Made by a program: the position numbers and the translations under genes. From NCBI GenBank assembly GCA_945917475.1, contig CAMEHL010000001.1, positions 1-55,163 on the forward strand: a stretch of DNA of 55,163 nt, read 5' to 3'. A model generated the notes under the pieces. The model had not been told where the DNA came from and ran no database searches. It saw nothing but the letters and a program-made list of their open reading frames with translations. This document shows positions 23,168 through 52,454 of the stretch, in pieces (the first letter of the stretch is position 1; each line of letters begins with the position of its first letter). Source of the stretch: an uncultured Clostridia bacterium. GTDB lineage: Bacteria > Bacillota > Clostridia > Christensenellales > Borkfalkiaceae.

Positions 23168-23176
23168 ATTTATATC

Positions 23177-24045: not shown

Positions 24046-25374
24046 CTAAAATTTCAATAAAATCGTTTCGTAGGGTTTTAGACTTATAACGCTATCGGCT
24101 TTAACGGGTTGAAAATCTTTTTCTTCGGAAATTATATTCGCCTGCTTTATTTCCTTAATTCCGTTTATTTCGACCGTGTTCGTCTCTTCGCAATTATTCG
24201 TAATAAGTAACGCTCCCGACTTTCCGTTATAAGCGCAAACGGAAAATACGGGTTTTTTATTGTTATCCGAATAAACTTCTTCACCTATCTTGTAAAGTTC
24301 GTTAAACGCCACGAACGAGTAATACGCCTTAAACAACTTTTTCTCTATCGGCAAATCCAAATGCGCGTAAAGAGGGTTGAACAGACCGCAATACACCGAA
24401 TCTATCTTCCCGTCGTAATACATGAGCATATCAAGCGAAGTATCCTGCAATACCAACATATTAGCAAGGATATTAGACGAATCCGCAAGCGTTCCCCTGC
24501 TCATTATCCCGGGATTCCACTCGTTGAGATAGTGTTCCGTTTTCGTATAGCCGAATTTATCGAGAGTTTTCCTGCAAAACTCCGCATACTTGATATTTCT
24601 CTCAACCGCAGAGTAACTGTGCCACGAGAAAAAGTCAAGGGGTGCTTTATGCTTTTCGTCCGAAATATACTTTAAGAAGTTTTCAAAATAATCTATAAAG
24701 TACTGCGTTCTCGAAGAAACCTTCGCCGAAACCTCCGATTTCTCGTTGAAAATCGCATAAAACCCGCAACTCGCATACCCGCCGAATTTAAGCGACGGGA
24801 ATCTTTCTTTTAAGTAACTTGCGGAAACGCGGTATAATTCGTAAAATTGTTCGGGCGTTCCCTTCCACATCTGATTGTCTTCGATTTCCTGAAAATTTTC
24901 CGGTTCGTTCCATATTTCCCAGTATTCGATATTATAGTGAAAGCCGTTTGCCCAACCGTCGTTATAGTGTTTTATAACGTGTTCACAAATTTTCGCCCAC
25001 TTCAAATTGTCTTTCGGCGGATAGATATAATACGGCTTTACGCATTGATAGTTTTCGATAGAAGTGCCGAGCCTGTAAAGGGGTTTTAGATTATACTTTG
25101 CCATTTCGGAAAAAAGCGCGTCCGTCATTGCAAAGTCGTAGGATTTTTCGTCGTTTTCGTCCGCGGTAAAATCGGGAAATATCTTTGGAATATCGACCAT
25201 TTTATCCGCCCCCCTATACACGAAGGTATCGTGCATACGGCATAGCGGCACACCCGCGTCGGATAGTGCCTTATATAAATCGTCGGCATAAAAGGCGGGA
25301 ACGTTGTTTATGCAGTGCATAGGTTTTATTTTGCCTGTTTTTTCGTTTAAGTTTACGTTAACGGAATATTTCAT
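24046..25374 (-). CDS. Clan GH-A TIM-barrel glycoside hydrolase, GH39-like, cytoplasmic
   Basis: The YWEIWNEPEN acid/base motif is typical of GH39/GH5-type enzymes. No signal peptide. 442 aa. Confidence 0.8.
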   Translation of the reverse strand: MKYSVNVNLNEKTGKIKPMHCINNVPAFYADDLYKALSDAGVPLCRMHDTFVYRGADKMVDIPKIFPDFTADENDEKSYDFAMTDALFSEMAKYNLKPLYRLGTSIENYQCVKPYYIYPPKDNLKWAKICEHVIKHYNDGWANGFHYNIEYWEIWNEPENFQEIEDNQMWKGTPEQFYELYRVSASYLKERFPSLKFGGYASCGFYAIFNEKSEVSAKVSSRTQYFIDYFENFLKYISDEKHKAPLDFFSWHSYSAVERNIKYAEFCRKTLDKFGYTKTEHYLNEWNPGIMSRGTLADSSNILANMLVLQDTSLDMLMYYDGKIDSVYCGLFNPLYAHLDLPIEKKLFKAYYSFVAFNELYKIGEEVYSDNNKKPVFSVCAYNGKSGALLITNNCEETNTVEINGIKEIKQANIISEEKDFQPVKADSVISLKPYETILLKF

Positions 25375-25416
25375 TTATTACTCCTTTTATCAATCTTATT
25401 TTTTATCCCGAAAAAT

Positions 25417-27015
25417 TTAAATGATATTGACCGAAACGTTGGTTTTCCAGTCGTTAAAAACGGGTATTTCTCCGCTCTCTTCTTTTCCCGTTTCTATATT
25501 CAGTATCTTTTCCTTTAATTCGGGTATTTCTTTTATATTGCCCTTTAGGTAATCTTTAAGCACTTTTCTCAAATGTTCTACCCGCAGTATCAAACCGCCG
25601 AGTCTTATATCCTGAATTTCAAACCCGAAGGGCTTGTTGTCACCCCCCCACGCGGTCTTAAAATCCGAATAGAATTTCTTTATTTTTTCGATAACGGCGG
25701 AATATTCCTTCACCAAACCTTTCAAGGTTTTCTTGTCCTTTTCCGAATACGCCTTTCTCGTCTTTACTCCGAGTTCGTATTTCACGGATAAAACTTCGCA
25801 AAGCGAAGACAGACAATTAAAAATATACGCGAACTTGCTTTCCCTTGCATACTCGGACAATTTGCGGGCGTATTGCCTATAAATTTCGTTTTCCCCGCCC
25901 TTTACTATATAATCGAATATCCCCGTAAAAAGGTCGTTATAGAGCATTAACTTGGAAGGTCCGTAATTCGTTCTTTTAATATTTATTTCGTTGGGCAAAT
26001 CCAAAGCCATAAACGCGTCGAAAGATTCGCCCGTAATTTCCTTAAACTTCTCTTTATAATCTTTTTCGTTAAAAAGGTCTTTGGCAATTTGCGACGCGAT
26101 AAATAGAGAAGGCAATACCGAAAAAACCGAACATTCCGCACCGTTTCCGCCCCACGCCGTTACCAAAACTTCGTCTATCCCGCATTCCTTTGAAGCTTCT
26201 ATACCCGCCCGTATTTCGTCTACGGAAAACGCGTTGTTGGGTGCAAAACCCCTTGACGTGTAGGCAGAACAAGCATAAACTACTTTTCTATCGAAAATCT
26301 TATGACCGAGAAGTAAATTTTTATAAAACTCCTTATCCGTGTGATAATAGTCCCAGCAAATCAGCCCGAGATTTTCCGGAATTTCCATATCGGACACAAG
26401 TGCGTCTAAAGACGAATAAGATTCGCCGCCTTTTGCCTTGTTAAAATACATATCCGACCACATCATGGGCGAAAAACCGTATTTTACGGCTATTTTATTT
26501 ACTTCGGTCAAGTGCCTTTTAAGCACTTCGAGCCTGTCCGTATACCCGTTTTTGTCGAGATAATACCCCCTTCCCGCAAAATGGGCTTCGTCCATACCGA
26601 TATTTATCCTTCTCGAAGTAAAGCACTCCGACACCGTTTTGAAAATATTATCTATCAGTCGATATGTTCTTTCGTTTCCCACAAGTAAAGTATCCGATAT
26701 ATCGTTTATCTCGGAATATTCCTTCCACCTGAAAATCTGATTTAAGTGAGCCAAGGTCTGAACGCACGGAAGGAGTTCCAAACCCAAAGATACGGCGTAT
26801 CTATCCAAATCCTTTAAATCTTCTTTGGAATATCTGCCCCGCATATATCCGAACATGGGTTCGTTATCGACTTCAAAAACGTCTTCAAAATATAGGGATA
26901 TATAGTCGTATCCCATATCGCGGACGATTTTCATAAAATATTTGATTCTGTCGACACGCATAACTGCGTTTCTCGAGCAATCTATCATAACACCGAGTTT
27001 TTTTACAGAAGACAT
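25417..27015 (-). CDS. GH20-like beta-N-acetylhexosaminidase family protein, cytoplasmic; divergent paralog of 11519..13114
   Basis: GVMIDCSRNAVM, LLPCVQTLAHL, NIGMDEAHFAG. About half of the first ~90 aligned residues are identical to the high-GC copy (hand count 47 of 92). Confidence 0.9.
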   Translation of the reverse strand: MSSVKKLGVMIDCSRNAVMRVDRIKYFMKIVRDMGYDYISLYFEDVFEVDNEPMFGYMRGRYSKEDLKDLDRYAVSLGLELLPCVQTLAHLNQIFRWKEYSEINDISDTLLVGNERTYRLIDNIFKTVSECFTSRRINIGMDEAHFAGRGYYLDKNGYTDRLEVLKRHLTEVNKIAVKYGFSPMMWSDMYFNKAKGGESYSSLDALVSDMEIPENLGLICWDYYHTDKEFYKNLLLGHKIFDRKVVYACSAYTSRGFAPNNAFSVDEIRAGIEASKECGIDEVLVTAWGGNGAECSVFSVLPSLFIASQIAKDLFNEKDYKEKFKEITGESFDAFMALDLPNEINIKRTNYGPSKLMLYNDLFTGIFDYIVKGGENEIYRQYARKLSEYARESKFAYIFNCLSSLCEVLSVKYELGVKTRKAYSEKDKKTLKGLVKEYSAVIEKIKKFYSDFKTAWGGDNKPFGFEIQDIRLGGLILRVEHLRKVLKDYLKGNIKEIPELKEKILNIETGKEESGEIPVFNDWKTNVSVNII

Positions 27016-27050
27016 TTTATTCCCTGCTTTTTTCCATTAAAAATAAGCGT

Positions 27051-27851
27051 TTATAAATCAAGCCCTTCCGCCACGAACTCGGGCAAAACTATTTCGACTT
27101 TTTTGCGGTTCTGTAATAACGTTGCGGGGATTTGCGCCTGCGGTTTATCGCGAAGAACGTGTTTCAATATCCCGTTTTGCCAAATTCTGTTTATCGCTAT
27201 ATATATCTTTCTCGACTGTAAAATTTGTTTCATACCTATCGTAATGCAATATTCGGGCATACCCCTTAAATCGCCTTTCTGATAGCCGAAAGCGTTTATC
27301 GTTCTCGTTTCTCTCGTGATTTTCAAAACTCTCGTTCCGAGATTTCCAAACTCTTCCGCGGTTATCGGGTCGTCTTCTTCCGCCGCCTCGTTAAAGGCGA
27401 TATGACCGTTTATGCCAAGTCCACCCAAGCACAAATCGACTCCGCCTAATTCTTCGATTAAAGCGTCGTATTCCTTTTCCTTACCCGGCTCGGGGAAATT
27501 ACGGTGAGATTCGTCCATAACCAAATCTTTTCTCACTCTCGAATAAAACTCGTCGTTCATTCTCTTGTGAAAACTCATTTTATCGTTAAAATCGAGATAG
27601 GTGTCCGGCGTTACGAGATATTCGTCCATATTAAAGAACCAAACGTTTTTAAGCGAAACGTTCAGATGATTGACCATTTGTGCCAAAATGGGATACTGAT
27701 CGGTAGGCCCTACGGGAACTATCATAACGGTTTTTTTGTTCTCCGCATTGTTCTTTACTATTTCGTCAAGCATCGTAAGTGCCATATCAAAATAGACGTC
27801 CCACTCCGTTTTGACCTTTCTCGTCTTAATTCCGTTTATCGTTTTATCCAT
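27051..27851 (-). CDS. nagB: Glucosamine/galactosamine-6-phosphate deaminase/isomerase (NagB family)
   Basis: FFNMDEY and GGLGINGHIAFNEA match the NagB motifs TFNMDEY and GGVGNDGHIAFNEP. 266 aa. Confidence 0.85.
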   Translation of the reverse strand: MDKTINGIKTRKVKTEWDVYFDMALTMLDEIVKNNAENKKTVMIVPVGPTDQYPILAQMVNHLNVSLKNVWFFNMDEYLVTPDTYLDFNDKMSFHKRMNDEFYSRVRKDLVMDESHRNFPEPGKEKEYDALIEELGGVDLCLGGLGINGHIAFNEAAEEDDPITAEEFGNLGTRVLKITRETRTINAFGYQKGDLRGMPEYCITIGMKQILQSRKIYIAINRIWQNGILKHVLRDKPQAQIPATLLQNRKKVEIVLPEFVAEGLDL

Positions 27852-27862
27852 ACAAAATCTCC

Positions 27863-29029
27863 TTACTTTACTATATTTCCTTTTTTTATAACCGTTTTTA
27901 TATTGAATTTATCGTCGTAAACGCATAAATCCGCAATGCAATTTTTCGCAACCCTTCCCAAGTCCTTTCTCCGTATAACCTTTGCGGGGTTTACCGTTGC
28001 GGTCTTAAACGCGTCGCAAACGGAATATCCGCATTGCATTAAATTCAACACCATTTCCCTTATCGGCGTTATACTTCCCGCATATCTCGTTCCGTCGGCA
28101 AGTACCGCCACGCCGTCGCTGACCTTAAATAACTGTGCGTCGGCATCGTCTTTCGACCCCAAGCGATACAGTCTTCCGTCGTTCGGCATACCCGCACAAC
28201 GCAGAGAGTCGGACACAACGCACACCTTGTCGATACCTTTGAGTTTTATTATCATTTTTGCCAACTCGGAAGTTATGTGCTTTTTATCGAAAATAATTTC
28301 CGCAGTCAACCTGTCGTCGCATAAGCCGTATTCCCGCAGTCCCACGTTCCTTTTCCCGTCCTTGAAACGCACTTCGCTCATAGCGCAATACGCGTGGGTT
28401 AAATGAGATAATCCGTTTTCTATCGCGGGAATAAACTCGGGGAAAATTCCGTCGTCGTGTCCACCGCAGACAACTATACCATTTTCTACCAAATCCTTGG
28501 TCATTATCTCCGCTTTCGGCAATTCCGGCGAAATGGTTACGGTTTTTATAATATCCGAATTTTCCAAAATAAAACCGTAGTCGTCTTTATCCGGACTTAA
28601 CAGATATTCTTCTTTTTGCGCGCCCTTGTTCTTTACGGAAAGATACGGACCTTCAAGGTGAACGCCAACGGGTTCGGCATACTCCGTTTTGCCCGAAGTA
28701 TAAAGCCTATACGATTGCAAAAAATTCTTTATCGATTTAACGGGCGCGGTAACGGTAGTCGCAAGCACGGAAGTAGTCCCGTTTTGCAAATGGAATTTTA
28801 ACGCGTTATCAAAAGACTGTTTTTCGCAATCCATAAAATCCCCGCCGAATCCGCCGTGCGTGTGGATATCTATCAATCCCGCGGACACCAAACTGTTTTG
28901 GGCATCAAAATCTCCCTTCAACCCCTTTTCGGTATTGATGTCCACGATTATTCCGTTATCCGTCACGATATTGCAACTTTGGGAAATCTCTTCTTCTTTA
29001 ATAACCCTGCAATTAGTCAGCGTAAACAT
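27863..29029 (-). CDS. nagA: N-acetylglucosamine (or N-acetylgalactosamine)-6-phosphate deacetylase
   Basis: GLIDIHTHGGFGGDFMD, VHLEGPYLS and HAYCAM are NagA/AgaA amidohydrolase motifs. Confidence 0.9.
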   Translation of the reverse strand: MFTLTNCRVIKEEEISQSCNIVTDNGIIVDINTEKGLKGDFDAQNSLVSAGLIDIHTHGGFGGDFMDCEKQSFDNALKFHLQNGTTSVLATTVTAPVKSIKNFLQSYRLYTSGKTEYAEPVGVHLEGPYLSVKNKGAQKEEYLLSPDKDDYGFILENSDIIKTVTISPELPKAEIMTKDLVENGIVVCGGHDDGIFPEFIPAIENGLSHLTHAYCAMSEVRFKDGKRNVGLREYGLCDDRLTAEIIFDKKHITSELAKMIIKLKGIDKVCVVSDSLRCAGMPNDGRLYRLGSKDDADAQLFKVSDGVAVLADGTRYAGSITPIREMVLNLMQCGYSVCDAFKTATVNPAKVIRRKDLGRVAKNCIADLCVYDDKFNIKTVIKKGNIVK

Positions 29030-29924
29030 TTTTCGCTATAAATTCCTCAACGATTTTTTCGTTTAACTCAAAATTTCTTACACCCAAATTCATACATTTA
29101 TACGCCGATACGGCACTCGCGTATTTGCAACTCTCGGCAACTCCCTTTCCGTTTAGATAGTAATGCAAAAACGCGCCGTGAAAGGTATCTCCCGCGCCGT
29201 TGGTGTCTACGGCACCTACCTTAAAGCCGTGATATTTTTCTATCCTGCTCTCTTCGGTCAAACAATAACCGCCGTTTGAACCGTCTGTTACGACAATCAC
29301 CTTGCAGTTATATTTTAACTTAAAATATCCGATTGCGTCAATAATATTCTCTTTTCCCGAAAATTTAAGTGCAAATTCGGCGGAAGGAATCAAAAAATCA
29401 ACTAACGGGAGCAACTTTTCTATCCCTTCGTATAAACCGCCCGCGTCTAAACTCACAGAAACTTTTTTCGACCTTGCGTATTCCGCACCGTAAATCGCGC
29501 ACTGCATAAAATTGCCGTCGAGATGTAAAACGTCAGCGGTGTCGATAGCCTTTAAGTTTACCCCCGAAACGGAATCGGGAACGTTGCCCCTGTCGTATAT
29601 ACAAGTTCTGGTTTTCGAGTCTTTCGCTAAAATAATATACGACCTGAAAGCGTCCGTTCCTTTTACTATTTTGACGTTTTCTGTTTTGACCCCGTATTTT
29701 TCATAGTCGGAAAGTAAAATCCGACCGTCCCCGTCAGACGCGAAATTGCCTATGATTTCCGCTCCCGTTCCGAGTTTGCTTAAAACAACGAGAGCGTTGC
29801 CGACGGGTCCCCCGCCGACAAGGTTTATGCCTTCCGCACCGACTTTTTTATCTTCAACGGGATATTTACCGCATGAAATCAAAGTGTCTAATACGCTTGC
29901 CCCGATTCCTACGACCTTTTTCAT
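29013..29924 (-). CDS. PfkB-family sugar(-phosphate) kinase (tagatose-6-P kinase / IolC / KdgK-like)
   Basis: DTNGAGDTFHGAF PfkB signature. Start MKKVVGIGAS at 29924 forms an ATGA overlap with the aldolase stop. Confidence 0.85.
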   Translation of the reverse strand: MKKVVGIGASVLDTLISCGKYPVEDKKVGAEGINLVGGGPVGNALVVLSKLGTGAEIIGNFASDGDGRILLSDYEKYGVKTENVKIVKGTDAFRSYIILAKDSKTRTCIYDRGNVPDSVSGVNLKAIDTADVLHLDGNFMQCAIYGAEYARSKKVSVSLDAGGLYEGIEKLLPLVDFLIPSAEFALKFSGKENIIDAIGYFKLKYNCKVIVVTDGSNGGYCLTEESRIEKYHGFKVGAVDTNGAGDTFHGAFLHYYLNGKGVAESCKYASAVSAYKCMNLGVRNFELNEKIVEEFIAKNVYAD

Positions 29925-30748
29925 ACTCTGTTTTCCGAACCTAATAATTTTATCTTGGAAATGCAAAACTGTTTAACCGATTCGATGGGTTTTGCCATTA
30001 TCAAATCTATACCGACCTTGTTTTTGTCTTCTTCCATTAAGGGATCGAGAAAGGCATAGCATAAATCCGTTCCGAAATTTACCTTTCTTATTCCCGCTTC
30101 AATCGCTTGTTTTATCTGTGCGTCGGGGACTCCGCTTCCGCCGTGGAGTACGAGCGGAATTTTAACCTCTTCTTTTATTTCCCTTATTCTCTCGATTGCG
30201 AGTTTCGGGGCTTGTTTATATCTCCCGTGAGCAGTGCCGACGGCAACCGCAAGGCAGGCTACCCCCGTTCCGTCTACGAACTTTTTCGCATCGGCAACGG
30301 TAGTGTAATCCGTGGGAACGCCGTCGCAAGCCTTTCCGATAAAACCGAGTTCCCCTTCTACGCCGATATTTGCGCCGTCTAATAATGTAACGACCTTTCT
30401 CGTGTTCTCGATATTTTCTTCAAGCGGAAGTTTGGAAAAGTCCACCATAATTCCCGTTGCGCCGTTTTTTAACGCTATCGTAGCGGGGATAAATCCCGCG
30501 CCGTGGTCCAAATGTAAGCAAACGGGAATTTTCGTCTTTAACGCAACGTCTGTAACGATGGGCGAAATAAAATCCCCGAATCCCGTAGACGCAAGTCTTG
30601 AATAATATTGCATAATTACGGGAGAACCCGCTTCTTCGCACGCCTTGATAACTCCCATAACCGTTTCCATATTATAAACGTTAAACGCGGGAACGGCATA
30701 TCCCTTTTCGTCGGCATCTCTTAAAATCTCTCTTAAATCTACTAACAT
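29921..30748 (-). CDS. Class II (FBA_II family) ketose-bisphosphate aldolase (tagatose-bisphosphate aldolase / IolJ-like)
   Basis: GYAVPAFNVYNMETV, LHLDHG, LVLHGGSG. Confidence 0.9.
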   Translation of the reverse strand: MLVDLREILRDADEKGYAVPAFNVYNMETVMGVIKACEEAGSPVIMQYYSRLASTGFGDFISPIVTDVALKTKIPVCLHLDHGAGFIPATIALKNGATGIMVDFSKLPLEENIENTRKVVTLLDGANIGVEGELGFIGKACDGVPTDYTTVADAKKFVDGTGVACLAVAVGTAHGRYKQAPKLAIERIREIKEEVKIPLVLHGGSGVPDAQIKQAIEAGIRKVNFGTDLCYAFLDPLMEEDKNKVGIDLIMAKPIESVKQFCISKIKLLGSENRV

Positions 30749-30759
30749 ATTTTTCTCCT

Positions 30760-31911
30760 TTATAAAGTACAGAGTATTCCGTAATCGGAATACCCGAATA
30801 TTTTTGCATCTTTATCTTTATTTATCGCGATAACCGTCGTTGAATTTTCAATTCCGACGATATGCTGAATTTCTCCGCTTATTCCGAAAGCGACGTAGAC
30901 TGCGGGAGAAATAATTTTTCCCGTTAAACCGACCTGTTTTTCATAGTCGATTAAACCTTCGTCTACAACCTTTCTTGACGCAACGATTTCCGCGCCGTAT
31001 TTCTTTGCAAGTTTTTCTATATCTTCTATCCTGTCTTTTGCCCCGTATCCTATGCCGAAAACCACTTTGCCGACAGAGTCTTCCTTTTCCCTTACGGTTG
31101 CCATAGCGAATTTTCCTTCGATACTTATCTCGGCAATAACGTTTTCGCAATTAGCGGGCCTTAAAAACCGAAGTTCGTTTAAGTCTCTTTTTATGCCTAT
31201 ACAATCGGCACAAAGCCCGCAATCGAGTTCGACGGCTATTCTCGGTGCTATCGCCCTGTTTTGCAATCCCGCCGAAAACAAAATATATTTTATTCCCGCG
31301 TCCTTTATCCTTATTGCCGTTTCCCTAACAGTCGTAAAAGGTATTCTCACAACTTCTTCGGCAACTTCGTCGGCAATTTTCAAGCCTTCTCCCACGACGA
31401 CGACCCTATCGATTTTGCCGTCGCTAAAGGACGATAATTTTTCTTCCGCTTCCTTTTTTTCGGATAGCGACTTCTTTATAATCCCGTCTAAATCGTCATA
31501 TCCGATAAATTTGCATTTCCTTTCTTTTTTGCTCTTTTCTAAAACGCTTATAACCTTCGTAAACGAACCTTTTATAACGCATTTACTTTCATCTAAACGC
31601 AATTTTTCGTTAGTCCAGATTTCGACTTCCTTCTTCTTTGAAAAAATGTTCGCAAATCTCAACTGTTTTATTCCGTCCAAACTGATAAGGGCGGGTGTGG
31701 TCAAGTCAAAATCCCCGAATCTCGTTTTCGCTTTATCAAAAGAAAAATCCAGCGTATACGGATAGAAATTATAGCCGAGTATAGTGGATATTTGCGCGGG
31801 AACTTGCGCCGTATCCCCGTTTATACTCTGCCTTCCGCATAGAATTATATCCGGCTTGATTTTTTCTATCGCGGAAGATAAAATCTTTGCCGTTACAAGC
31901 GTGTCGCTCCC
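30760..31911 (-). CDS. EtfB C-terminal part fused in frame to an EtfA-like (FAD-binding) domain
   Basis: The track ORF (TTG at 31704) is open upstream to 31911: GSDTLVTAKILSSAIEKIKPDIILCGRQSINGDTAQVPAQISTILGY... (EtfB-like). This runs with no stop into ...PAVYVAFGISGEIQHIVGIENSTTVIAINKDKDAKIF (EtfA FAD domain). Confidence 0.75.
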   Translation of the reverse strand, partial: GSDTLVTAKILSSAIEKIKPDIILCGRQSINGDTAQVPAQISTILGYNFYPYTLDFSFDKAKTRFGDFDLTTPALISLDGIKQLRFANIFSKKKEVEIWTNEKLRLDESKCVIKGSFTKVISVLEKSKKERKCKFIGYDDLDGIIKKSLSEKKEAEEKLSSFSDGKIDRVVVVGEGLKIADEVAEEVVRIPFTTVRETAIRIKDAGIKYILFSAGLQNRAIAPRIAVELDCGLCADCIGIKRDLNELRFLRPANCENVIAEISIEGKFAMATVREKEDSVGKVVFGIGYGAKDRIEDIEKLAKKYGAEIVASRKVVDEGLIDYEKQVGLTGKIISPAVYVAFGISGEIQHIVGIENSTTVIAINKDKDAKIFGYSDYGILCTL

Positions 31912-32114
31912 TTATAGCAATCGTCCGATATAAGTATTGCCCGAACGTTTCCGAGTCTTGTGAAATATTCTAAATTTTCCTTTATTTCCTTTGGACCCAT
32001 GCTTATAAGGAAAATTTCGGCGTTTTCGACACCTAACGCCATTTCGATACACGTTTTATCGAAAGGACTTATTTCCCCCTTATAGAACTTTATCGCGACC
32101 GCAACTTTAAGCAT
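31893..32114 (-). CDS. EtfB N-terminal fragment, out of frame with the continuation
   Basis: MLKVAVAIKFYKGEISPFDK...VRAILISDDCYKG then ATRL*. The expected continuation SDTL... is in the -1 frame. The shift site is the C3 run at 31909-31911. Confidence 0.7.
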   Translation of the reverse strand: MLKVAVAIKFYKGEISPFDKTCIEMALGVENAEIFLISMGPKEIKENLEYFTRLGNVRAILISDDCYKGATRL

Positions 32115-33564
32115 TATATATTTCCTCTAATGCCTTTTGTATCTTTTTATATCTCTCGAATATCTTTTCGTATTTTTCTGTATTTTCGCAATTCGGAGTC
32201 GTTTCGGAAACTATTTCGGAACATGTTTTTATTGCGTCCGAATAGTCTTTAAATATTCCGCTCGCAATACCCGCGCACATCGCCGAACCGAAAGAACTGT
32301 CGTTGTTTTCCGTCGTAACGAGTTTGATATTCAACGCGTCGGAAACGATTTGTCTCCACTCTTTACTCGTCGAACCACCGCCGATAGCAAAAGCCGTTTG
32401 CATTTTCACGCCGTTCTTTATTAGGTGCTTTTTGCAGTCGATTAAAGACATCGCCACGCCTTCCATAATCGCCCTTGCGAAATGCCCTTTCGTGCAAGTT
32501 CCCGAAATTCCCACGAAACTACCCCGCAGTTTGGGATTGCCGTAAGGCGTTAATTCGCCGTTTAAGTAGGGGTGATAAATAAGCCCGTCGCACCCAATGG
32601 GAACTTTACGGACCAACTCGTCGAATTCCGAATAATTTCCGCCGAAAGTATCTCTGAACCAATGCAAAGACGACGCGCACGCTTTCGTTGCCGTCCCCGG
32701 ATAAAAAAGCCCGTCTATCAAGTGCGAATAGTTGATTATGTGTTTATCTGCAACGGTTTTATCGTCGACAACGCAAATTCTTCCCGCGGTGGCGAGTTTG
32801 ATAGTCGTTTGCCCTTTTTCTATCGCGCCGGCGGCAAAAACTTCCATCGCGGTATCCGTAGAACCGCAAATCACCTTGGTATTATACGATAAACCGAGTT
32901 TATCCGCAATCTCTTTTTTTACGTTTCCTACTATCGTCAGCGGGGAAACGATTTTCGGAAGACAGTCTTCGTTTATTCCGAGAATATCTAAATATCTTTT
33001 TTCCCACTTGTATTCGTCGAAGGGAAAAAACATAGAGCCTTCCGCTTCTATTTTGTCCGTAACGAAATCGTCGGAAAAACTGTGGCGGACGAAATCCTTT
33101 GCGAAGGTTATTTTTTTAACCCTTGCCCATATATCGGGTTCGTTCTCTTTTATCCACAGCAATTCCGGAAGCGTCCATATTGTATCTACGGTGTGCTTGA
33201 ATTTTTTGAAAATATCATCGCTGAAATCTCTCTTTAATCTTTTCACCTGTTCGATACTTCTCGTATCCGTCCAGTAAACCGAGTTCCTTACAGTGTTGAA
33301 ATTTTCGTCCATTAACACCGCCGTATGCGTTGCGGCATCAAAACAAATGCACTTAATATCTTCCTTGTTTATGCCCTGTATTAAATTTTTTATATTTTTA
33401 CACGAAGTGTAAACCCAGTCGTTCGGGTCTTGTTCGACCTTACCGCCGTCGCCGTAAATCGTTTTATATTCGCTTTTGGATTTGGCTATAACCTTGCCTT
33501 CGCCGGATAACAGCGTGGCTTTACTCGACCCACCGCCGAAATCAACGCCTATAACGTATTCCAT
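32107..33564 (-). CDS. FGGY-family carbohydrate kinase (xylulokinase-like)
   Basis: VIGVDFGGGSSKATL, ...YWTDTRS..., ...GSTDTAMEVFAAG..., ...AIGGGSTSKEWRQIVSDAL.... 485 aa. Confidence 0.9.
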   Translation of the reverse strand: MEYVIGVDFGGGSSKATLLSGEGKVIAKSKSEYKTIYGDGGKVEQDPNDWVYTSCKNIKNLIQGINKEDIKCICFDAATHTAVLMDENFNTVRNSVYWTDTRSIEQVKRLKRDFSDDIFKKFKHTVDTIWTLPELLWIKENEPDIWARVKKITFAKDFVRHSFSDDFVTDKIEAEGSMFFPFDEYKWEKRYLDILGINEDCLPKIVSPLTIVGNVKKEIADKLGLSYNTKVICGSTDTAMEVFAAGAIEKGQTTIKLATAGRICVVDDKTVADKHIINYSHLIDGLFYPGTATKACASSLHWFRDTFGGNYSEFDELVRKVPIGCDGLIYHPYLNGELTPYGNPKLRGSFVGISGTCTKGHFARAIMEGVAMSLIDCKKHLIKNGVKMQTAFAIGGGSTSKEWRQIVSDALNIKLVTTENNDSSFGSAMCAGIASGIFKDYSDAIKTCSEIVSETTPNCENTEKYEKIFERYKKIQKALEEIYNA

Positions 33565-33567
33565 AAC

Positions 33568-34359
33568 TTACTTATTCATCCACATATGGTCTTCGTCCGT
33601 CGTGCTGAAAAGTCCCCTGTTTTTACCCGCCATAATCCACAAGCAGTAATTTTTGTAGTTCGGAGCAACGGAGAAGGGGTGATAGCCCTTGGGAATTTCC
33701 ACGAAATCGCCGTTTTCGACCTTATACGCCTCGTTTATGCTTCCGTCTTTAGTATATACCATCTGAACTCCGAAACCCTGCGGTTTGTCGAATTCATAGT
33801 AGTATATTTCGTCAAGCGCGCCTTCGACGGGAAGATTGTCTATATCGTGCTTGTGCGGGGGATAACTGCCCCACTTGCCGTCTTCCACCCAAAATTCACC
33901 TATATACAAATGGTTTGCATTGACCGTTTCGGGGAAGGTGAACGCAACTTCACGGATACAAGCACCTTTTCCGAAAGTCTTTACGACGACATCTTCCGCT
34001 TTGATACGGAAGGGTTCGTAATATTTTTCCGCGGGGGCTTTCGCAACGCAGATTTTAACGTCGCCGTTAAGTCCCGTAACCGTGAAAGGCTTATTCCTTC
34101 CTATATATACGGATTCCGCCGCCCCGTCAAACACGGTTTTACGGCTTCCCACACAGTCGAACTTAAAACCTTCGCCACTAACAGAACATTTCCCGTATAG
34201 AACTATCAACACGAATTCCTTATTCTCTTCGTCGATAGTGTAACTTTGCCCGTCGGCAAGTTTAAGGATATCCGCTTCGGCATAAATTAAAGGACTGTTC
34301 CTGTCTGTAACAATCCTTTCATAGCCGTATTTTTCCGCATAACTCTTTTTTAAATTCAT
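33568..34359 (-). CDS. iolB: 5-deoxy-glucuronate isomerase (KduI/IolB family, IolB-like)
   Basis: GKWGSYPPHKHDIDNLPVEGALDEIYYYEF...GFGVQMVYT...IPKGYHP...LWIMAG closely parallels B. subtilis IolB as I recall it (GNWSSYPPHKHDQDNLPEE...ETYYHEL...GFVFQRVYT...VPAGYHP...LNVMAG). Confidence 0.85.
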   Translation of the reverse strand: MNLKKSYAEKYGYERIVTDRNSPLIYAEADILKLADGQSYTIDEENKEFVLIVLYGKCSVSGEGFKFDCVGSRKTVFDGAAESVYIGRNKPFTVTGLNGDVKICVAKAPAEKYYEPFRIKAEDVVVKTFGKGACIREVAFTFPETVNANHLYIGEFWVEDGKWGSYPPHKHDIDNLPVEGALDEIYYYEFDKPQGFGVQMVYTKDGSINEAYKVENGDFVEIPKGYHPFSVAPNYKNYCLWIMAGKNRGLFSTTDEDHMWMNK

Positions 34360-34369
34360 AATACAACTC

Positions 34370-35452
34370 CTATTTTATATTTTCCGAAATCATTTCTTCG
34401 ACGGAAAGCACCCTGTATCCGTCCGGACAATTTTCCTTTAACAGTTCGTATTCCGCGGGATTTTCCGTAACAAGGGTTTTGCAATCCATATTTTTTGCGT
34501 TTTCCCACCTGTTTGCGGCGACCTTGCTTTGAACTTCCTTCATATATTCGTTCATAATCAAATGTCCCGCAAGATTCGTCTCCTTGCCATTCAAAAGCAT
34601 TTCTTTATTTACGCCGACTCTGTCTACGAGTTTTCTTACCGTTTCGCTGTCGTCTAATTCTCTCGAATAAGCATAGTTGTCTTGCACGGTGTATGCCTTA
34701 TCCGACTTTACGACGTTTAGTTTTCCGCTGTCTATAAGGTCGATAAGAAAGGCGTTAAAACCGATTATTTCGGCTTTGACGGTAACGCCCCACTCCGCCC
34801 ACTCTCTTTTTATGAATTTCAAGTCGACGGGGTCGTATACGACGACCTTTTCGTATCCGTTAATAATTTCGGCACTTTGCTCTGCACTTTGCTTGGTGTC
34901 TGCGGTTTTTCCCACCAAGAACCATAACGCCGAACCCGTTGAATTGCTCTTTTCGTTCAAAGTGAAATTCACGCCTGCCTTTTTTAACAATTCGCAGGCG
35001 TTCTTAACACTGTTTGCACTTTTATACAAAGCGTCTTGGCCGACTAAAAATAAAATGTTCGACTCTCTGTCGAAATATTTTTTCAAACTTTCGTCATACG
35101 GTATTCCGTATACGTTACCCGTTTGTTGATACTTGGTCAATAAATCCTTAATATACGGCGGAATAACCCCGTTTAAAACAGCGTCCGCCTTAACTTCCTG
35201 AATAAATATTTTCGGGTCCCAACCCGTTATACAGTTATTCGTACAAGCACCGCAAAGGGAACACTCATATATATTGTCGATAATATCGTCGATTTTTTCC
35301 GCACCGCGAACAACTACCGACGCACATAAAGCCCTTGCTCTTGCCGTATTCCTTTCCTGTCCCGTTGCGTTGCCGATAGGACAAATATGTCTACACATTC
35401 AACAAAATCTGCACGAATCGATTTGTTGCTTTGCTTTTTCGGAAATATTCAT
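34370..35452 (-). CDS. GlcF/GlpC-like (Fe-S)-binding subunit with CCG-type C-terminal region; carries an in-frame TGA at 35401-35399
   Basis: AAGGAG RBS 9 nt before ATG 35452. MNISEKAKQQIDSCRFC-TGA-MCRHICPIG completes CxxCxxCxxxCP only if the TGA is read through. The second cluster is CSLCGACTNNC. The track ORF starts at the Met just after the TGA. Confidence 0.75.
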
Positions 35453-35465
35453 TTTGCCACACTCC

Positions 35466-36890
35466 TTATAAACCTAATTTAAACGGATTCATTATTCCGT
35501 TCGGGTCGAGAGATTTCTTTATCCCTTCAAATACTTGCATCGCAGGTCCGTATTGTTCCTTCATAAGCCTTCCGAGTTTTATCCCTACCCCGTGGTGATC
35601 GTTTACGACACCGCCGTTCGCTATCGCTTCTCTCACGCCTACAGTCCAGATCTTGTTGTGCAATTTCATCGCTTCGACGGGGTCTTCGGGTACGTATTCT
35701 TTATCTACGATAAACCTGTCGTAAACCATACAACCCCACTCGTACCAGTGAGAGAAGTGCGCTATGAATTTAACGTGCGGGAAAGTGCTTTCAATCTTGT
35801 TTTTCATTGCCCAGTAAATCTTTTCTATTTTATCGTAGGGCGCAATGGTATCCATAGTGCCGAACATTTGCGGTAAATCCATCATATGCCCGGGATAGAA
35901 AAAGGTAATTTTTTCCTTCCACCACTTTTCACCGTATTCACTGCCCAAGTCTTCCGCACCGTATTTGGAAAAAGTATCGAGTAAAATCTTTTCTTCAACG
36001 TCCACTAATTCCTTAACGCCTTCGTAAGCGACGTTCATAAACGCGCCGGGTTTTTCCACGCCGACGATTTTCTTTATCAAACTTGCCGTTTCGGCATTGT
36101 CGTATAATCTCATAACAGAAGGCTTGAATTTTTGGAGAATTTCTCTCGATGCCTTAAACGCAGACGACATATCCTTAAACAAAAATCCCCTGAATCTTCT
36201 CACTTCCGGCTGTTCGTATATTCTGATTTGCGCCTTCGTTATAACCCCGAGCGTTCCTTCAGAACCTATAAAAATTTGATTTAGGTCGGGACCTGCGGCA
36301 TGCTTCGGCGCGTTTGAAGTGTTAATTATATCGCCGTTTGGCAAAACGACTTCCATAGACAAAACCATATCGTCTATTTTGCCGTATTTAGTAGAAACAA
36401 CGCCTATTCCCCTGTGTGCCAAAAAACCGCCGACGGTAGAACAGGTAAGCGAAGACGGATAGTGCATAGTCGCGTATCCCTTTTCGTTTGCCGCCCACTC
36501 GACGTGCTTATAGATAGCACCCGTTCCGCACTCTATATACATAGAATCTGTATTGACTTCGTAGATTTTATTCATACGTTTGGTATCTAGAATTATACCG
36601 CCCGCAACGGGAAGCGCACCGCCTTGCGTGCCACCGCCCCCGCCCCAGGTCGTTACGGGGATTTTATAGTAATTCGCAATCTTTAACACCTTCGACGTTT
36701 CTTCCGCGTCTTTCGGCGAAACAATATAGTCCGCTTCGGGCATTCTCCTACCCCTGTCCGCCCACATACGTGAAAGCCAAAAATAATCTACGCTGTGCGT
36801 GAGTTTATCTATTTCCTTCACCGAGCAATTTTCTTCTCCTACCGCGTCTTCCAACTCGGTTATAATTTGTGTCTGTAAAAATTCGTTCAT
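35466..36890 (-). CDS. FAD-binding oxidoreductase (GlcD / D-lactate dehydrogenase / alkyl-DHAP-synthase-like, FAD_binding_4 + FAD-oxidase_C)
   Basis: ...PVTTWGGGGGTQGGALP..., ...GPDLNQIFIGSEGTLGVITKAQIRI..., ...VMRLYDNAET..., ...HHGVGIKL.... 474 aa. Confidence 0.9.
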   Translation of the reverse strand: MNEFLQTQIITELEDAVGEENCSVKEIDKLTHSVDYFWLSRMWADRGRRMPEADYIVSPKDAEETSKVLKIANYYKIPVTTWGGGGGTQGGALPVAGGIILDTKRMNKIYEVNTDSMYIECGTGAIYKHVEWAANEKGYATMHYPSSLTCSTVGGFLAHRGIGVVSTKYGKIDDMVLSMEVVLPNGDIINTSNAPKHAAGPDLNQIFIGSEGTLGVITKAQIRIYEQPEVRRFRGFLFKDMSSAFKASREILQKFKPSVMRLYDNAETASLIKKIVGVEKPGAFMNVAYEGVKELVDVEEKILLDTFSKYGAEDLGSEYGEKWWKEKITFFYPGHMMDLPQMFGTMDTIAPYDKIEKIYWAMKNKIESTFPHVKFIAHFSHWYEWGCMVYDRFIVDKEYVPEDPVEAMKLHNKIWTVGVREAIANGGVVNDHHGVGIKLGRLMKEQYGPAMQVFEGIKKSLDPNGIMNPFKLGL

Positions 36891-38897: not shown

Positions 38898-38909
38898 ATT
38901 TCTCCACGG

Positions 38910-40820: not shown

Positions 40821-40822
40821 AA

Positions 40823-42856: not shown

Positions 42857-42865
42857 AATCACTCC

Positions 42866-45800: not shown

Positions 45801-45913
45801 GACCATTGCTTTTTTTCGGACGAAAAAACAACGTGCTTTACCGAAAAAAACAGTAATAACAAACACGAGAAGATTAATGTCCCTATCAATATGTTTCTTA
45901 ATTTTTTAGTCAT
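42866..45913 (-). CDS. 1015-aa membrane-anchored/secreted multi-domain surface protein with Ig-like (DUF5011/HYR-type) domains
   Basis: N-terminal TM NILIGTLIFSCLLLLFFSV. Repeated D(A/T)P(K/P)(I/V) module starts (DVDAPKISID, NRAPQIFVD, DVTPPVLTV). C-terminal ...ATDETGCEVKIDV...TAIDEAGNYSS. Confidence 0.85.
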   Translation of the reverse strand: MTKKLRNILIGTLIFSCLLLLFFSVKHVVFSSEKKQWSFSEVEIKKTYAIGDAFNVPKCDFYLNGTRYDTAYYMILPNKTSIVKDSFSLTESGNYKLVYTGKADGISRSVSYEFSVLHALYGIDGDSDSLFPYYGVKDFNGNEYSGQEGIFTRLKNMDTFYIKQILDISTYTKNDTVIKFFNIPQKLGENDANLILRLTDVENENNFVEVEFKTVLDESNILTYYNTYITGRFTDSDVIGASLRPAQSATGEYIPYRGQWFSVQKNNSWGHETVFSWVGTPQNKQLGDESVSISYDYADNAIFANGMLVVDLDDPAFYEKGFGGFSSGRVKLTLEGKKYSKAYADLCILQIADMDLSKNVFYDVDAPKISIDTKGNVEIPKAVVGEKYNIFDCSAYDEVDGYCETEVSVYKNYYMKGKTIVDSTNGYFIPKTAGNYYVVYKSKDLSGNTAEVVVNVNAIKERVTPLSVTLDENTFPGEVGNELQAFSNVSVKGNIGNYKISAYAVHNGTNKSFDIIDGKFLPLYIGTYSVFVKVSDYIGSADYETFTVEVTGDSEGVIRFYDEYHFDKYFIKNASYKINDYYAYKLTASSVEKVLTKVYVNEDGKGFDKLISGNTYLVGASNTVQFRYEYNGSYIDSAVYKVFDVNFGSQNVYVAENFFNTSNIVKTASEKGVSFTVEDKTADSCIEFINSVQVREFSLLFSLSDTQKSFGKLKIRLCDVYDENNDIIIYYYLKNDGAYFSYNNKEVKLHKSFGSEEVEYSLQFNNETLMLNDEKLSFYNSDFMGFTDCLAYLSLSFEGVDGTAGVKINQINGQDFKSGMTDNRAPQIFVDKRSVNVPYKSEVKVREAVVKDVLDPCPVFTFQVTTPSGSFAKTKDGVTLDGDKYSLDYIIVLDSYGYYNFSYKATDICGNGQTRLDIKTFNCNSVDVTPPVLTVSKISSTANVNDKIALPTISATDETGCEVKIDVILIDADGISKMMKENSFVANKAGKYTIIVTAIDEAGNYSSEQVIIEVR

Positions 45914-45966
45914 AAATTGTCCCTTTATTCTTTTTATTTCTGAATTTTCCGTCGTAAATTCTCTTA

Positions 45967-46836: not shown

Positions 46837-46837
46837 A

Positions 46838-47761: not shown

Positions 47762-47805
47762 AGTAATACCTTAACGTCGATAAATTGAAATACTGTAATA
47801 CTTAA

Positions 47806-49527: not shown

Positions 49528-49541
49528 AGTCTCTCCAAAAA

Positions 49542-49673
49542 TCAGTTTTTGTAAATCGGTTCAAAACTATCCGTCGATTCCACTTCGGAATCTATAATTT
49601 CTCCGGACCCATACATGCAGTCGTCCGAAATCAACAGTTCGATATCAGACTCCGGTTTAAAATATTTTTTCAT
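49542..49673 (-). CDS. 43-aa acidic small ORF, below the ORF-track length cut-off
   Basis: MKKYFKPESDIELLISDDCMYGSGEIIDSEVESTDSFEPIYKN. A GGAGAA RBS lies 7 nt upstream and directly follows the TGA of the 881-aa gene. The ORF's stop is followed by the GGAGAG RBS of the SBP gene. Confidence 0.35.
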   Translation of the reverse strand: MKKYFKPESDIELLISDDCMYGSGEIIDSEVESTDSFEPIYKN

Positions 49674-49687
49674 TATTTTATTCTCCA

Positions 49688-52333: not shown

Positions 52334-52363
52334 ATTACTCCTCCCCTTTATATTCTTTATTTC

Positions 52364-52392
52364 ATTATAAGCGTTTTTGCATTTATTGTATA
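52364..52392 (-). promoter_or_regulatory. Candidate promoter of the low-GC glycan gene train
   Basis: On the minus strand: TATACA (52392-52387), 17-nt spacer, TATAAT (52369-52364). Confidence 0.35.
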
Positions 52393-52454
52393 GAATTATA
52401 TTGCACAAAAATAGTAAATTCCTGCCGAAATTTAACAAAATATTCCTTTTATTA

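Follow-up and report, generated by a model that had tools for sequence, protein, structure and literature searches.

The kinase/aldolase pairs YihV/SqiA, YdjH/YdjI and IolC/IolJ share a common logic, i.e. a ketose with an anionic end is phosphorylated at C1 and is then cleaved into dihydroxyacetone phosphate (DHAP) and an anionic aldehyde, and the isomerases IolB and KduI act on hydroxy-aldehydes that bear a distal carboxylate. The sulfonate triad of YihV consists of Lys27-Asn109-Arg138 (PMC8006165), and SqiA, represented by the structures 8Q58 and 8Q57, is a class II sulfofructose-1-phosphate aldolase (PMC10665668). On the side of electron transfer, the mycobacterial protein EtfD (Rv0338c) accepts electrons from an electron-transferring flavoprotein (ETF) (PMC8593149, PMC13083937), and a single-chain fusion in the order EtfB-EtfA is known in Sulfolobus acidocaldarius (PMC12042025). 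Here we describe a module of seven genes that encode an FAD-linked oxidoreductase, an Fe-S protein, an IolB-family isomerase, an FGGY-family kinase, a fused EtfB-EtfA (EtfBA), a class II aldolase and a PfkB-family kinase. It lies in a 55,163-nt stretch of DNA from an uncultured Clostridia bacterium of the Borkfalkiaceae (assembly GCA_945917475.1, contig CAMEHL010000001.1, positions 1 to 55,163), the whole of which is referred to below as the window. The module is conserved as a unit across phyla and may, as argued below, serve a glycolysis-like route for an anionic hexose.

The open reading frames (ORFs) of the window were classified with Pfam and NCBIfam models, using the NCBIfam cut-offs quoted below. 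On the minus strand, from 36890 down to 24046, they form a tightly packed run, with -17 to +42 nt between consecutive genes, and a check of the ORF coordinates placed the run where a first-pass annotation of this DNA had put it. The overlaps quoted in that annotation, namely ATGA between the aldolase and PfkB genes and ATGCTTAA (8 nt) between the FGGY and EtfBA genes, are exact. From 5' to 3' the run encodes the FAD flavoprotein, the Fe-S protein, IolB, FGGY, EtfBA, the aldolase and PfkB, followed by NagA, a NagB-like protein and glycoside hydrolases (GH) of a GH20 and a GH39-like type. This amounts to 11 genes instead of the twelve that had been claimed, EtfB and EtfA being a single fused gene; for the remainder the proposed families agree with Pfam and NCBIfam, weakly so for the NagB-like and GH39-like proteins. 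The first seven genes constitute the core module:

35466..36890, minus strand: FAD-linked oxidoreductase, 474 aa, a member of the GlcD/VAO family resembling alkyldihydroxyacetonephosphate synthase (ADPS); PF01565 (FAD_binding_4) and PF02913 (FAD-oxidase_C)
34370..35452, minus strand: Fe-S protein, 360 aa when intact, interrupted here by a TGA; Fer4_8 match
33568..34359, minus strand: cupin isomerase of the IolB/KduI family, 263 aa; PF04962 at 7e-76, TIGR04378
32107..33564, minus strand: FGGY-family sugar kinase, 485 aa; PF00370 and PF02782
30760..32114, minus strand: fused compact EtfB-EtfA, 451 aa when intact, frameshifted here; Pfam ETF and ETF_alpha
29921..30748, minus strand: class II (metal-dependent) ketose-phosphate aldolase, 275 aa; PF01116 at 4e-86
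29013..29924, minus strand: PfkB/ribokinase-family kinase, 303 aa from the ATG at 29924; PF00294

Neighbourhoods of homologs of EtfBA, the Fe-S protein and the flavoenzyme were taken from public assemblies and scored by tblastn. The conservation counts refer to 29 related loci of at least 12 kb (designated by L-numbers where needed) and to context at the level of the contig. The seven genes are complete in 21 of these loci and a further one has six of them; of the seven exceptions, six represent one lineage in which an orphan EtfBA lies beside an integrase gene and the last is a distant match. In the orphan lineage (L036-L040 and L055, at about 10001-11386) EtfBA is 38% identical and the other module genes are absent. 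Its neighbours there, i.e. an AraC regulator, a trehalase-like enzyme, GH4 and GH95 enzymes and a phage-type integrase, hold no functional clue. Metagenome-assembled genomes (MAGs) that carry the module are labelled Clostridia, Oscillospiraceae, Lachnospiraceae, Bacilli and Planctomycetia, and the genes occur in two orders that are assembled from the constant sub-blocks [FAD oxidoreductase-Fe-S], [IolB-(DUF4867 or aldose epimerase)-FGGY-EtfBA] and [aldolase-PfkB]. The supposition that the combination is no chance juxtaposition is thus borne out by the synteny of the seven genes in 21 of 29 loci, in two orders and across phyla, with the restriction that the conserved unit comprises seven genes and not twelve. 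When it was tested whether the block splits into separately conserved operons, the core held together and the accessory genes did separate; likewise, the expected co-conservation of iolB, etf and the FAD oxidase gene with nagAB applies to the seven-gene core, NagA/NagB-like genes being found in only about 5-6 lineages. Full-text literature searches yielded no papers describing the gene combination, and the view that it matches no known pathway stands in so far as no matching pathway was found.

IolB lies directly upstream of FGGY in both orders, with at most one accessory gene in between, which is DUF4867, aldose epimerase or, in a few loci, an AEC transporter. DUF4867 corresponds to the SftX family, whose function is unknown (PMC11968277). 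Companions that are common in relatives and absent from the window are this DUF4867, an RpiR/MurR regulator and an SftI-like isomerase that either adjoins aldolase-PfkB or opens the module. The latter is a protein of 466 aa without a Pfam domain, whose sole NCBIfam match is SftI at 96 bits (cut-off 700). An aldose 1-epimerase (mutarotase) or an AEC transporter is present in some relative loci, and the L001 lineage has the seven genes plus an RpiR regulator only. The flanks of the module are unrelated from locus to locus and mostly consist of housekeeping genes; a census of these flanks for substrate clues returned only sporadic AEC or EamA transporters and GH30, GH2 or GH10 enzymes. The module is a self-contained catabolic unit, which in the window species has been inserted into a glycan-utilisation operon. 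Two further observations concern these neighbourhoods. Downstream of PfkB in L097 (18946-19803) lies a chimeric gene (285 aa) that joins a piece of GH31 to a C-terminal piece of NagA, apparently a deletion scar. An EamA-family transporter gene is found at 53809-54573 of the window, beyond the regulator, and another directly after EtfBA in the Planctomycetia locus L100 (12789-13940); such a transporter could import the substrate or export a product.

The searches recovered more than 1400 homologs of EtfBA, more than 2400 of the Fe-S protein and more than 6000 of the FAD enzyme, nearly all from uncultured Clostridia with some from Bacilli and Planctomycetia MAGs. They stem from MAGs and from metagenomes of gut or fermentation samples, and none was assigned to a cultured organism. 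Between loci the flavoenzyme shares 79-95% identity, as compared to 34-72% for the neighbouring module proteins. In Bacilli and Planctomycetia MAGs, too, its identity exceeds 80%, and its 90% clusters hold up to 2944 member sequences. The constraint on this protein is extreme and unexplained.

To judge from their sequences, the kinase and the aldolase of the module resemble pairs whose substrates are ketoses bearing an anionic group at the far end. In the PDB, the PfkB protein is most similar to YihV, the sulfofructose kinase of E. coli (6e-24, 88 bits, as compared to 64 bits for the next match), with YdjH among the top matches. It matches the 1-PFK/LacC model TIGR03168 only partially, at 34 bits (cut-off 216), and the IolC model TIGR04382 at 67.9 bits (cut-off 300), ribokinase models scoring higher. 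In the case of the aldolase, the best PDB matches are the SqiA structures 8Q58 and 8Q57 (186 and 184 bits), followed by YdjI (174) and AgaY (164; FBA/AgaY about 165), and its scores for TIGR01858 and KbaY are below the cut-offs. Compared to E. coli GatY, the distal-phosphate 'DPR' Arg and the S/T-x-G loop are replaced; the C-terminus is YdjI-like and lacks the 'DPR' Arg, and the absence of a distal-phosphate Arg is shared with SqiA. Instead there is an invariant, family-specific Y-S-R51 loop, of which Arg51 lies in the distal-pocket loop, where SqiA binds the sulfonate. The two enzymes had been compared with a tagatose-bisphosphate (Aga/Gat) pair. We reject this assignment, as neither the kinase subfamily nor the aldolase residues fit it, i.e. 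PfkB fails TIGR03168 and the aldolase is devoid of the distal-phosphate ligands.

The IolB-like protein passes the 5-deoxy-glucuronate isomerase model TIGR04378 (228.4 bits, cut-off 205), a modest pass that would not in itself prove the substrate, and its sole PDB match is the IolB-like protein 2qjv. As had been stated, IolB occurs without IolG, IolE, IolD and IolA: none of these families was found in the window or inside the module of the Pfam-annotated loci L001, L005, L097 and L099-L101, while L100 has an IolG-type gene (GFO_IDH_MocA) outside the module, about 1.6 kb further downstream. FGGY scores 359 bits for XylB (cut-off 380), 250 for GntK and 145 for GlpK (cut-off 590), with the gluconate kinase 3gbt and xylulokinases as best PDB matches. 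A glycerol kinase with glycerol-3-phosphate dehydrogenase in the manner of GlpK/GlpABC was rejected on the basis of the GlpK score (145 versus 590 bits) and because no CCG domain was detected, the likeness being a chemical analogy only.

For the flavoenzyme, the best PDB sequence matches are alkyl-DHAP synthases (3e-43) and then D-lactate dehydrogenase (8e-35), LctD also ranking behind, and the JGI annotates its orthologs as alkyldihydroxyacetonephosphate synthase. Residues R261, Y390 and H432/H433 align to R419, Y578 and H616/H617 of ADPS (guinea-pig numbering) and are invariant in 23 orthologs, as part of which the motif D431-H432-H433-GVG is invariant, with Asp431 at the position of ADPS H615. 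At the positions of the metal ligands H405 and E442 of mLDHD the flavoenzyme has M388 and H432, equally invariant in the 23 orthologs, by which two of the three ligands are gone; in the LctD paralogs that adjoin the module in L026 and L034 all three are retained (H, H, EH). At 474 aa, against 584 and 658 for ADPS chains, the protein furthermore lacks the N-terminal 130-200 residues of ADPS, the alignment starting at ADPS residue 132 or 207. Since the metal ligands are replaced, the ADPS residues are kept and the N-terminal part is missing, the flavoenzyme is predicted to be neither an ordinary 2-hydroxyacid dehydrogenase nor a true ADPS, but an ADPS-like bacterial flavoprotein with an active site that appears to be built for a DHAP-like phosphorylated ketone. 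A role in ether-lipid synthesis is very unlikely, and that the enzyme is encoded together with an ETF and an Fe-S protein implies net electron transfer. An ordinary lactate or glycolate dehydrogenase is excluded by the active-site residues. The analogies offered by the first-pass annotation, i.e. confurcating lactate dehydrogenase (LDH), GlpK/GlpABC and EryA/EryB, are leads only. Canonical EtfB-EtfA-LctD operons lie immediately downstream of the module in L026 (12764-16205) and L034 (11670-15076), where both ETF systems thus coexist.

EtfBA is a compact protein; the best 120 of the more than 1400 homologs are almost all 447-464 aa long. In Foldseek searches its AF2 model (pLDDT 89) matches EtfB chains with the N-terminal half and EtfA chains with the C-terminal half, bifurcating and non-bifurcating ETFs giving similar scores. 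EtfA domain I is truncated, Pfam covering profile positions 84-158 only. No Fer4 domain was found in EtfBA by Pfam, the Fe-S clusters being on the separate protein. In L097 (13946-15318) the compact ETF is encoded by two overlapping genes (182 and 275 aa). The Fe-S protein has eight invariant N-terminal Cys residues, from which a ferredoxin domain with two [4Fe-4S] clusters is predicted, and its C-terminal 280 residues contain no invariant Cys, C324 reaching 90%. The AF2 model (pLDDT 86) has M. smegmatis EtfD (9ojn) as its best Foldseek match, with a TM score of 0.72 over the query, followed by LutA and HdrB, so that the modelled C-terminal part probably adopts an EtfD/LutA/HdrB-like fold. With 360 aa versus 742 for EtfD, the model is all soluble alpha/beta and has no evident hydrophobic segment. 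In this protein, which had earlier been labelled GlcF/GlpC-like, the CCG domain (PF02754) was not detected by Pfam and CCG-type cysteines are not conserved.

What might such a combination of enzymes do? The nearest kinase/aldolase pairs, the chemistry of the IolB family and the synteny, in which the SftI-like isomerase goes with PfkB-aldolase and IolB with FGGY and the redox genes, led us to propose two rounds. We tentatively suggest a glycolysis-like route in which a hexose with an anionic C6 group, likeliest a uronate or N-acetylhexosaminuronate, is processed twice in succession, a scheme that is possible rather than probable and for which we infer what the substrate is, in which order the steps follow and which way the electrons flow. 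In the first round, the sugar would be converted into a ketose by the SftI-like isomerase in most relatives; in the window species NagA and the NagB-like deaminase would produce the ketose from an N-acetyl-amino derivative, and where neither SftI-like nor NagA/NagB-like proteins are encoded IolB would make it. PfkB would then phosphorylate C1 to give the ketose-1-phosphate, and the class II aldolase would yield DHAP and an anionic C3 hydroxy-aldehyde (tartronate semialdehyde in the case of a uronate). In the second round, the IolB-like isomerase would turn the hydroxy-aldehyde into a hydroxy-ketone (hydroxypyruvate), the FGGY kinase would convert this into a DHAP-like compound (3-phosphohydroxypyruvate), and a redox step of the ADPS-like flavoenzyme would lead to 3-phosphoglycerate, with electrons passing between this enzyme and NAD(H) and/or ferredoxin by way of EtfBA and the EtfD-like Fe-S protein. 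The adjacencies within the sub-blocks, which are alike in both gene orders, fit the series isomerase, PfkB, aldolase and then IolB, FGGY, flavoenzyme. For a hexuronate the chemistry would close neatly, from tartronate semialdehyde via hydroxypyruvate and 3-phosphohydroxypyruvate to 3-phosphoglycerate. The 3-phosphohydroxypyruvate/3-phosphoglycerate couple is about as positive as pyruvate/lactate. It is for couples as positive as the latter that anaerobes use Etf-linked flavoenzymes (PMC9232219).

This scheme is the best-supported one and yet weak, as a series of observations weighs against it. The FGGY protein is closest to xylulokinase and gluconokinase and not to a triose kinase, and we know of no FGGY-family hydroxypyruvate kinase, nor, to our knowledge, does a flavin- or Etf-dependent phosphohydroxypyruvate reductase exist. 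An NADH-dependent reductase would suffice for the last step, which leaves the need for an Etf unexplained, and the ADPS-type residues suggest carbanion/leaving-group chemistry instead of simple hydride transfer. The carboxylate-binding Arg (R347 in mLDHD) aligns to a non-Arg residue of the flavoenzyme, the YihV triad is kept for one-third in PfkB (K27 is present, R138 is N in 21 of 23 sequences or otherwise H, and N109 is lost), and the E. coli phosphate ligand K208 is a Glu in the NagB-like protein of the window. Most loci have neither a dedicated uronate transporter nor a uronate-releasing glycosidase beside the module, and literature and homolog searches gave no substrate evidence, cultured organism or paper on the module. 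Finally, two of the three redox genes are broken in the window.

A more specific version of the redox step, which we consider doubtful, holds that the flavoenzyme, the miniature fused ETF and the soluble EtfD-like protein would form a new redox complex that acts on a phosphorylated C3 analogue of DHAP, either by desulfurylating it via covalent flavin chemistry or by coupling the reduction of 3-phosphohydroxypyruvate to that of ferredoxin. If true, such a complex would complete a widespread gut and rumen pathway by which an anionic hexose is converted entirely into glycolytic intermediates, and in its first variant the desulfurylation would be independent of oxygen, sulfatase and radical.

The broken genes of this particular contig, which the first-pass annotation overlooked, call for a reading of their own. 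In EtfBA a single A is missing at 31908, by which the gene is split into ORFs in two frames (32114-31893 and 31893/31704-30760). The repaired protein of 451 aa is 98% identical to the intact conspecific protein P0001, and the extra A is present in three conspecific contigs from other samples. In the Fe-S gene, the true start of which is at 35452, an in-frame TGA at 35399-35401 (TGG to TGA) replaces the invariant Trp18 of CRFCWMCRHICP; in three other samples the conspecific protein, P0281, is uninterrupted. Recoding of this TGA as Trp or Sec was discarded, as TGA ends other genes here and conspecifics have TGG. With both genes disrupted, either this strain no longer performs the redox step or the consensus sequence is in error at the lesions. 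It is quite possible, if somewhat short of probable, that in this contig the redox part is a decaying remnant, i.e. that the function of the Fe-S protein and EtfBA has been lost while IolB, the kinases, the aldolase, NagA and NagB were kept. The two inactivating lesions are independent and both fall in redox genes (two of the three), the deletion is the sole indel over the approximately 20 kb that align to conspecific contigs (99.1-99.5% identity), TGA is an ordinary stop codon elsewhere in the contig, and a nonsense substitution is atypical of homopolymer error. These points are countered by the intact state of both genes in six conspecific contigs from five sample accessions, by the location of the deletion in a short GGGAA run, where it could be a consensus error of the MAG assembly, and by the absence of additional decay in the rest of either gene.

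An alternative arrangement of the same enzymes, unlikely in our view, is a convergent funnel, in which two branches would meet at one keto-sugar-acid phosphate that is cleaved by the aldolase, the resulting C3 acid semialdehyde being handled elsewhere. In one branch a uronate or 5-deoxy-glucuronate would be isomerised by IolB and phosphorylated by PfkB, as by IolB/IolC; in the other an aldonate or polyol would be phosphorylated by FGGY, after which the flavoenzyme would oxidise the glycerol-3-phosphate-like end and donate the electrons to Etf and the Fe-S protein, the couple being too positive for NAD+. Glycerol-3-phosphate/DHAP and lactate/pyruvate (about -190 mV) are the classic cases for flavin/Etf- or quinone-linked dehydrogenases in anaerobes, and couples of this kind would suit a flavin/Etf-linked oxidation. 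The funnel further agrees with the DHAP-type active site of the flavoenzyme, with the resemblance of FGGY to GntK and XylB, which phosphorylate the far primary alcohol, and with the translational coupling of FGGY to EtfBA, and it employs all seven genes with one isomerase, as in the L001 lineage. However, in both gene orders IolB adjoins FGGY and not PfkB, no role is left for the SftI-like isomerase, DUF4867 and mutarotase of most relatives, the module contains no enzyme to deal with the reactive semialdehyde, and the transporters point to no aldonate or polyol candidate.

The resemblances to YihV and SqiA raise the question of whether the substrate is a sulfo-sugar, which we regard as quite improbable. 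In such a sulfoglycolysis-like route, sulfoquinovose, or N-acetylglucosamine-6-sulfate that the DUF4838 and GH20 enzymes would free and the NagA/NagB-like proteins would convert, would be split by kinase and aldolase into DHAP and a sulfo-triose, from which IolB and FGGY would make a DHAP analogue with a sulfonate or sulfate at C1; this C1 group would be comparable to the acyl of acyl-DHAP, and the flavoenzyme would remove the sulfur group without a sulfatase or glycyl-radical enzyme. ADPS displaces an ester leaving group from C1 of DHAP, so that leaving-group chemistry at this position would fit and is chemically attractive. Four module or accessory proteins are nearest to YihV, SqiA, SftI and SftX/DUF4867, a mutarotase is present in some loci, no sulfatase domain was seen in the scanned window ORFs, the homologs derive from MAGs and gut or fermentation metagenomes, and both the DUF4838 and GH20 families include 6-sulfo-GlcNAcases (PMC10570127). 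Nevertheless, the K-R-N triad of YihV is lost except for K27, and the SftI-like protein, which the window does not encode, reaches 96 bits against a cut-off of 700. Beside about 28 loci there is no complete GH31 or GH188 sulfoquinovosidase, and neither a sulfolactaldehyde reductase or dehydrogenase nor a sulfite exporter was seen. The DUF4838 protein of the window is a lipoprotein, unlike the cytoplasmic GH185 cluster, the NagB-like K208 is a Glu here, and a hydrolytic displacement of the ADPS type would be redox-neutral and would not need Etf and the Fe-S protein. Membership of a true sulfoquinovose pathway was accordingly rejected (triad unconserved, no sulfoquinovosidase, SftI-like protein far below the cut-off).

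Least probable by far is a patchwork in which ordinary functions lie in one operon without further connection (an Etf-coupled LDH or glycolate dehydrogenase, IolB/IolC/IolJ, a xylulokinase and a GlcNAc/GalNAc-tagatose route): each gene has a plausible ordinary annotation, IolB and NagA pass their own cut-offs and an FAD oxidase with an Etf is the architecture of LDH (PMC9232219), but the seven genes stay together across phyla and through rearrangement of their order, the flavoenzyme has no LDH metal site while genuine EtfB-EtfA-LctD operons adjoin the module in L026 and L034, PfkB fails the IolC (68 versus 300 bits) and 1-PFK (34 versus 216) models, the aldolase has no distal-phosphate Arg, FGGY is below the XylB cut-off, and no iolG, iolE, iolD or iolA is found in the loci.

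Outside the core, the run and its surroundings contain the following accessory and flanking features:

27863..29029, minus strand: homolog of NagA-type N-acetylhexosamine-6-phosphate deacetylase, 388 aa, lineage-specific accessory; TIGR00221
27051..27851, minus strand: divergent NagB-like deaminase/isomerase, 266 aa, lineage-specific accessory; weak Pfam match
25417..27015, minus strand: homolog of GH20 (GH20C-type) beta-N-acetylhexosaminidase, cytoplasmic, 532 aa, accessory; PF18088 (Glyco_H_20C_C) 4e-52, PF00728 3e-9
24046..25374, minus strand: GH39-like glycosidase, 442 aa, accessory, last gene of the run; PF01229 6e-13, PF12891 3e-5
37023..52438, minus strand: upstream part of the run, recognised by Pfam and lipobox-type N-termini; intergenic gaps of -13 to +160 nt
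52489..53340, plus strand: AraC-family regulator with a PocR sensor domain, divergent; PF10114, PF00165, PF12833

NagA (TIGR00221 at 230 bits, cut-off 225.65) adjoins the module only in the window species, L093, L005-7, L018, L022 and L026. Together with a distinctive NagB-like subfamily it flanks the module in the window species, L093, L005-7, L018 and L026, in both gene orders; in L022 NagA is accompanied by a standard-type NagB a few genes downstream. Divergent NagA/NagB-like pairs are thus found by the module far more often than the chance placement of single-copy genes would give. The NagB-like protein scores 26.2 bits in Pfam (gathering score 27) and 94 bits for TIGR00502 (cut-off 237), retains the catalytic NMDEY and GHIAFNE motifs and has an N-terminal insertion of about 20 residues in common with the module-linked copies of L018, L007 and L026. 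The Glu at the K208 position recurs in L018, the other module-linked copies having Lys or Arg. The GH20 protein has no signal peptide and has a 43%-identical paralog at 11519-13135; GH20 beside the module recurs only in L018. The GH39-like protein, also devoid of a signal peptide, keeps its position in the conspecific L090 and is next to the module only in conspecifics. NagA, NagB and the glycosidases, which had been considered integral to the block, are in this light lineage-specific add-ons outside the seven-gene core.

The packed run begins upstream of 36890 and reaches 52438. Its upstream part encodes a GH78-like six-hairpin glycosidase, a Big_2 lipoprotein, a DUF4838 (GH163/GH185-related) lipoprotein, a 1015-aa surface protein, two ABC permeases, a putative solute-binding lipoprotein and a 916-aa protein, in an order that is repeated in the conspecific contig L094. 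A scan for promoters and terminators gave only one promoter-like site, a weak one ahead of the FAD gene (36972-36945), and nothing inside the run that convinces as a terminator; an Rfam scan of the window gave zero matches. From its position alone, the AraC/PocR protein is a candidate regulator of the run. The DUF4838 lipoprotein is encoded at 40823-42862. Characterised members of this family are an endo-beta-GlcNAcase for complex N-glycans (GH163) and a 6-sulfo-GlcNAcase (GH185) (PMC10570127), which hints that the operon targets host-type, possibly sulfated, glycans.

With respect to the window as a whole, the base composition is about 0.40 GC at 24-55 kb and 0.47-0.55 at 6-22 kb, with low-GC islands (about 0.33) at 4-6 kb and 22-24 kb. 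The homology to the conspecific L090 ends at 23428, within the shift region (~21700-24000). The shift and breakpoint near 23428 could reflect a rearrangement at strain level, the horizontal acquisition of an island or a chimeric join. The higher-GC half holds, on the same strand, a second sugar-uptake locus (6217-21674), which encodes a ROK/MarR-type regulator, a solute-binding protein, permeases, unknown 868- and 462-aa proteins, a second GH20C-type enzyme (11519-13135), a 1039-aa Flg_new-repeat protein and a Y_phosphatase3 protein.

The module is common in uncultured gut and rumen bacteria and has no assigned function. If the proposed two-round route is true, anaerobes would have a new glycolysis-like way to use acidic or sulfated sugars, a bacterial protein related to the ether-lipid enzyme ADPS would have a function in redox chemistry, and the ETF would be the smallest known, with a soluble EtfD-like partner. 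The route would also correct a systematic mis-annotation of these proteins as 'alkyldihydroxyacetonephosphate synthase', 'glycolate oxidase', 'xylulokinase', 'fructose-bisphosphate aldolase' and 'ribokinase'. Since the seven proteins are small and soluble, direct testing in vitro is feasible.

Set against the described systems, the module comes close to several and coincides with none. With the sulfoglycolytic variants of the Embden-Meyerhof-Parnas pathway, i.e. sulfo-EMP (YihS/YihV/YihT), the sulfo-EMP2 of SqiA and the SftI/SftX type of Firmicutes, it shares the logic of an isomerase, a PfkB-type ketose 1-kinase and an aldolase; its kinase and aldolase have YihV and SqiA as best matches, and relatives carry the SftI-like protein, DUF4867 and mutarotase. 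It differs from these in that the YihV triad, a sulfoquinovosidase and a sulfolactaldehyde reductase or dehydrogenase are missing, as is the SftI-like gene in the window, whereas IolB, FGGY and the trio of flavoenzyme, Etf and Fe-S protein are in no sulfoglycolysis cluster. With IolB-IolC-IolJ of B. subtilis it has in common an IolB-family cupin, a PfkB kinase and a class II aldolase by which a uronate-like aldehyde would be converted into DHAP and an acid semialdehyde, but the PfkB protein of the module is no IolC ortholog and IolB is coupled to FGGY, not to PfkB. The E. coli ydj system (YdjH/YdjI, acting on L-glycero-L-galacto-octuluronate) likewise combines PfkB with a short class II aldolase on a carboxylate-ended ketose, and YdjI, the octuluronate-1-phosphate aldolase, is the third-best PDB match of the module aldolase. 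There, however, E. coli has Zn-dehydrogenases and an aldo-keto reductase, in the place of which the module has IolB, FGGY and flavoenzyme/Etf, next to its own Y-S-R51 loop.

For the redox proteins a similar picture emerges. ADPS (AGPS) is the best PDB sequence match of the flavoenzyme, with invariant equivalents of Arg419, Tyr578 and His616/His617, but the N-terminal part that contributes to the fatty-alcohol/acyl tunnel is missing and the gene resides in a sugar operon of an anaerobe, together with Etf and the Fe-S protein. LctBCD of Acetobacterium woodii, like other GlcD-type dehydrogenase/ETF pairs, also represents a GlcD/VAO-fold flavoprotein encoded with an ETF (PMC9232219), whereas the flavoprotein of the module lacks two metal ligands, its ETF is a single chain of ~450 aa without the ferredoxin domain of LctC, and a separate EtfD-like protein is present. 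The model of this Fe-S protein superposes on EtfD (TM 0.72), which is itself much larger (742 versus 360 aa); no membrane domain of the kind that would couple it to menaquinone was detected in the module protein and its CCG-type cysteines are not conserved. The fused ETF of S. acidocaldarius has the same EtfB-EtfA order, the module version being much shorter, with a truncated EtfA domain I. That the redox step constitutes a new reaction type is rather unlikely in our estimate, though far from negligible. In summary, the module would work like the 'anionic ketose-1-phosphate' pathways, i.e. sulfo-EMP, the lower half of Iol and Ydj, and fails the defining tests of each of them, and the trio of flavoenzyme, ETF and Fe-S protein is an addition that is found in none of the three.

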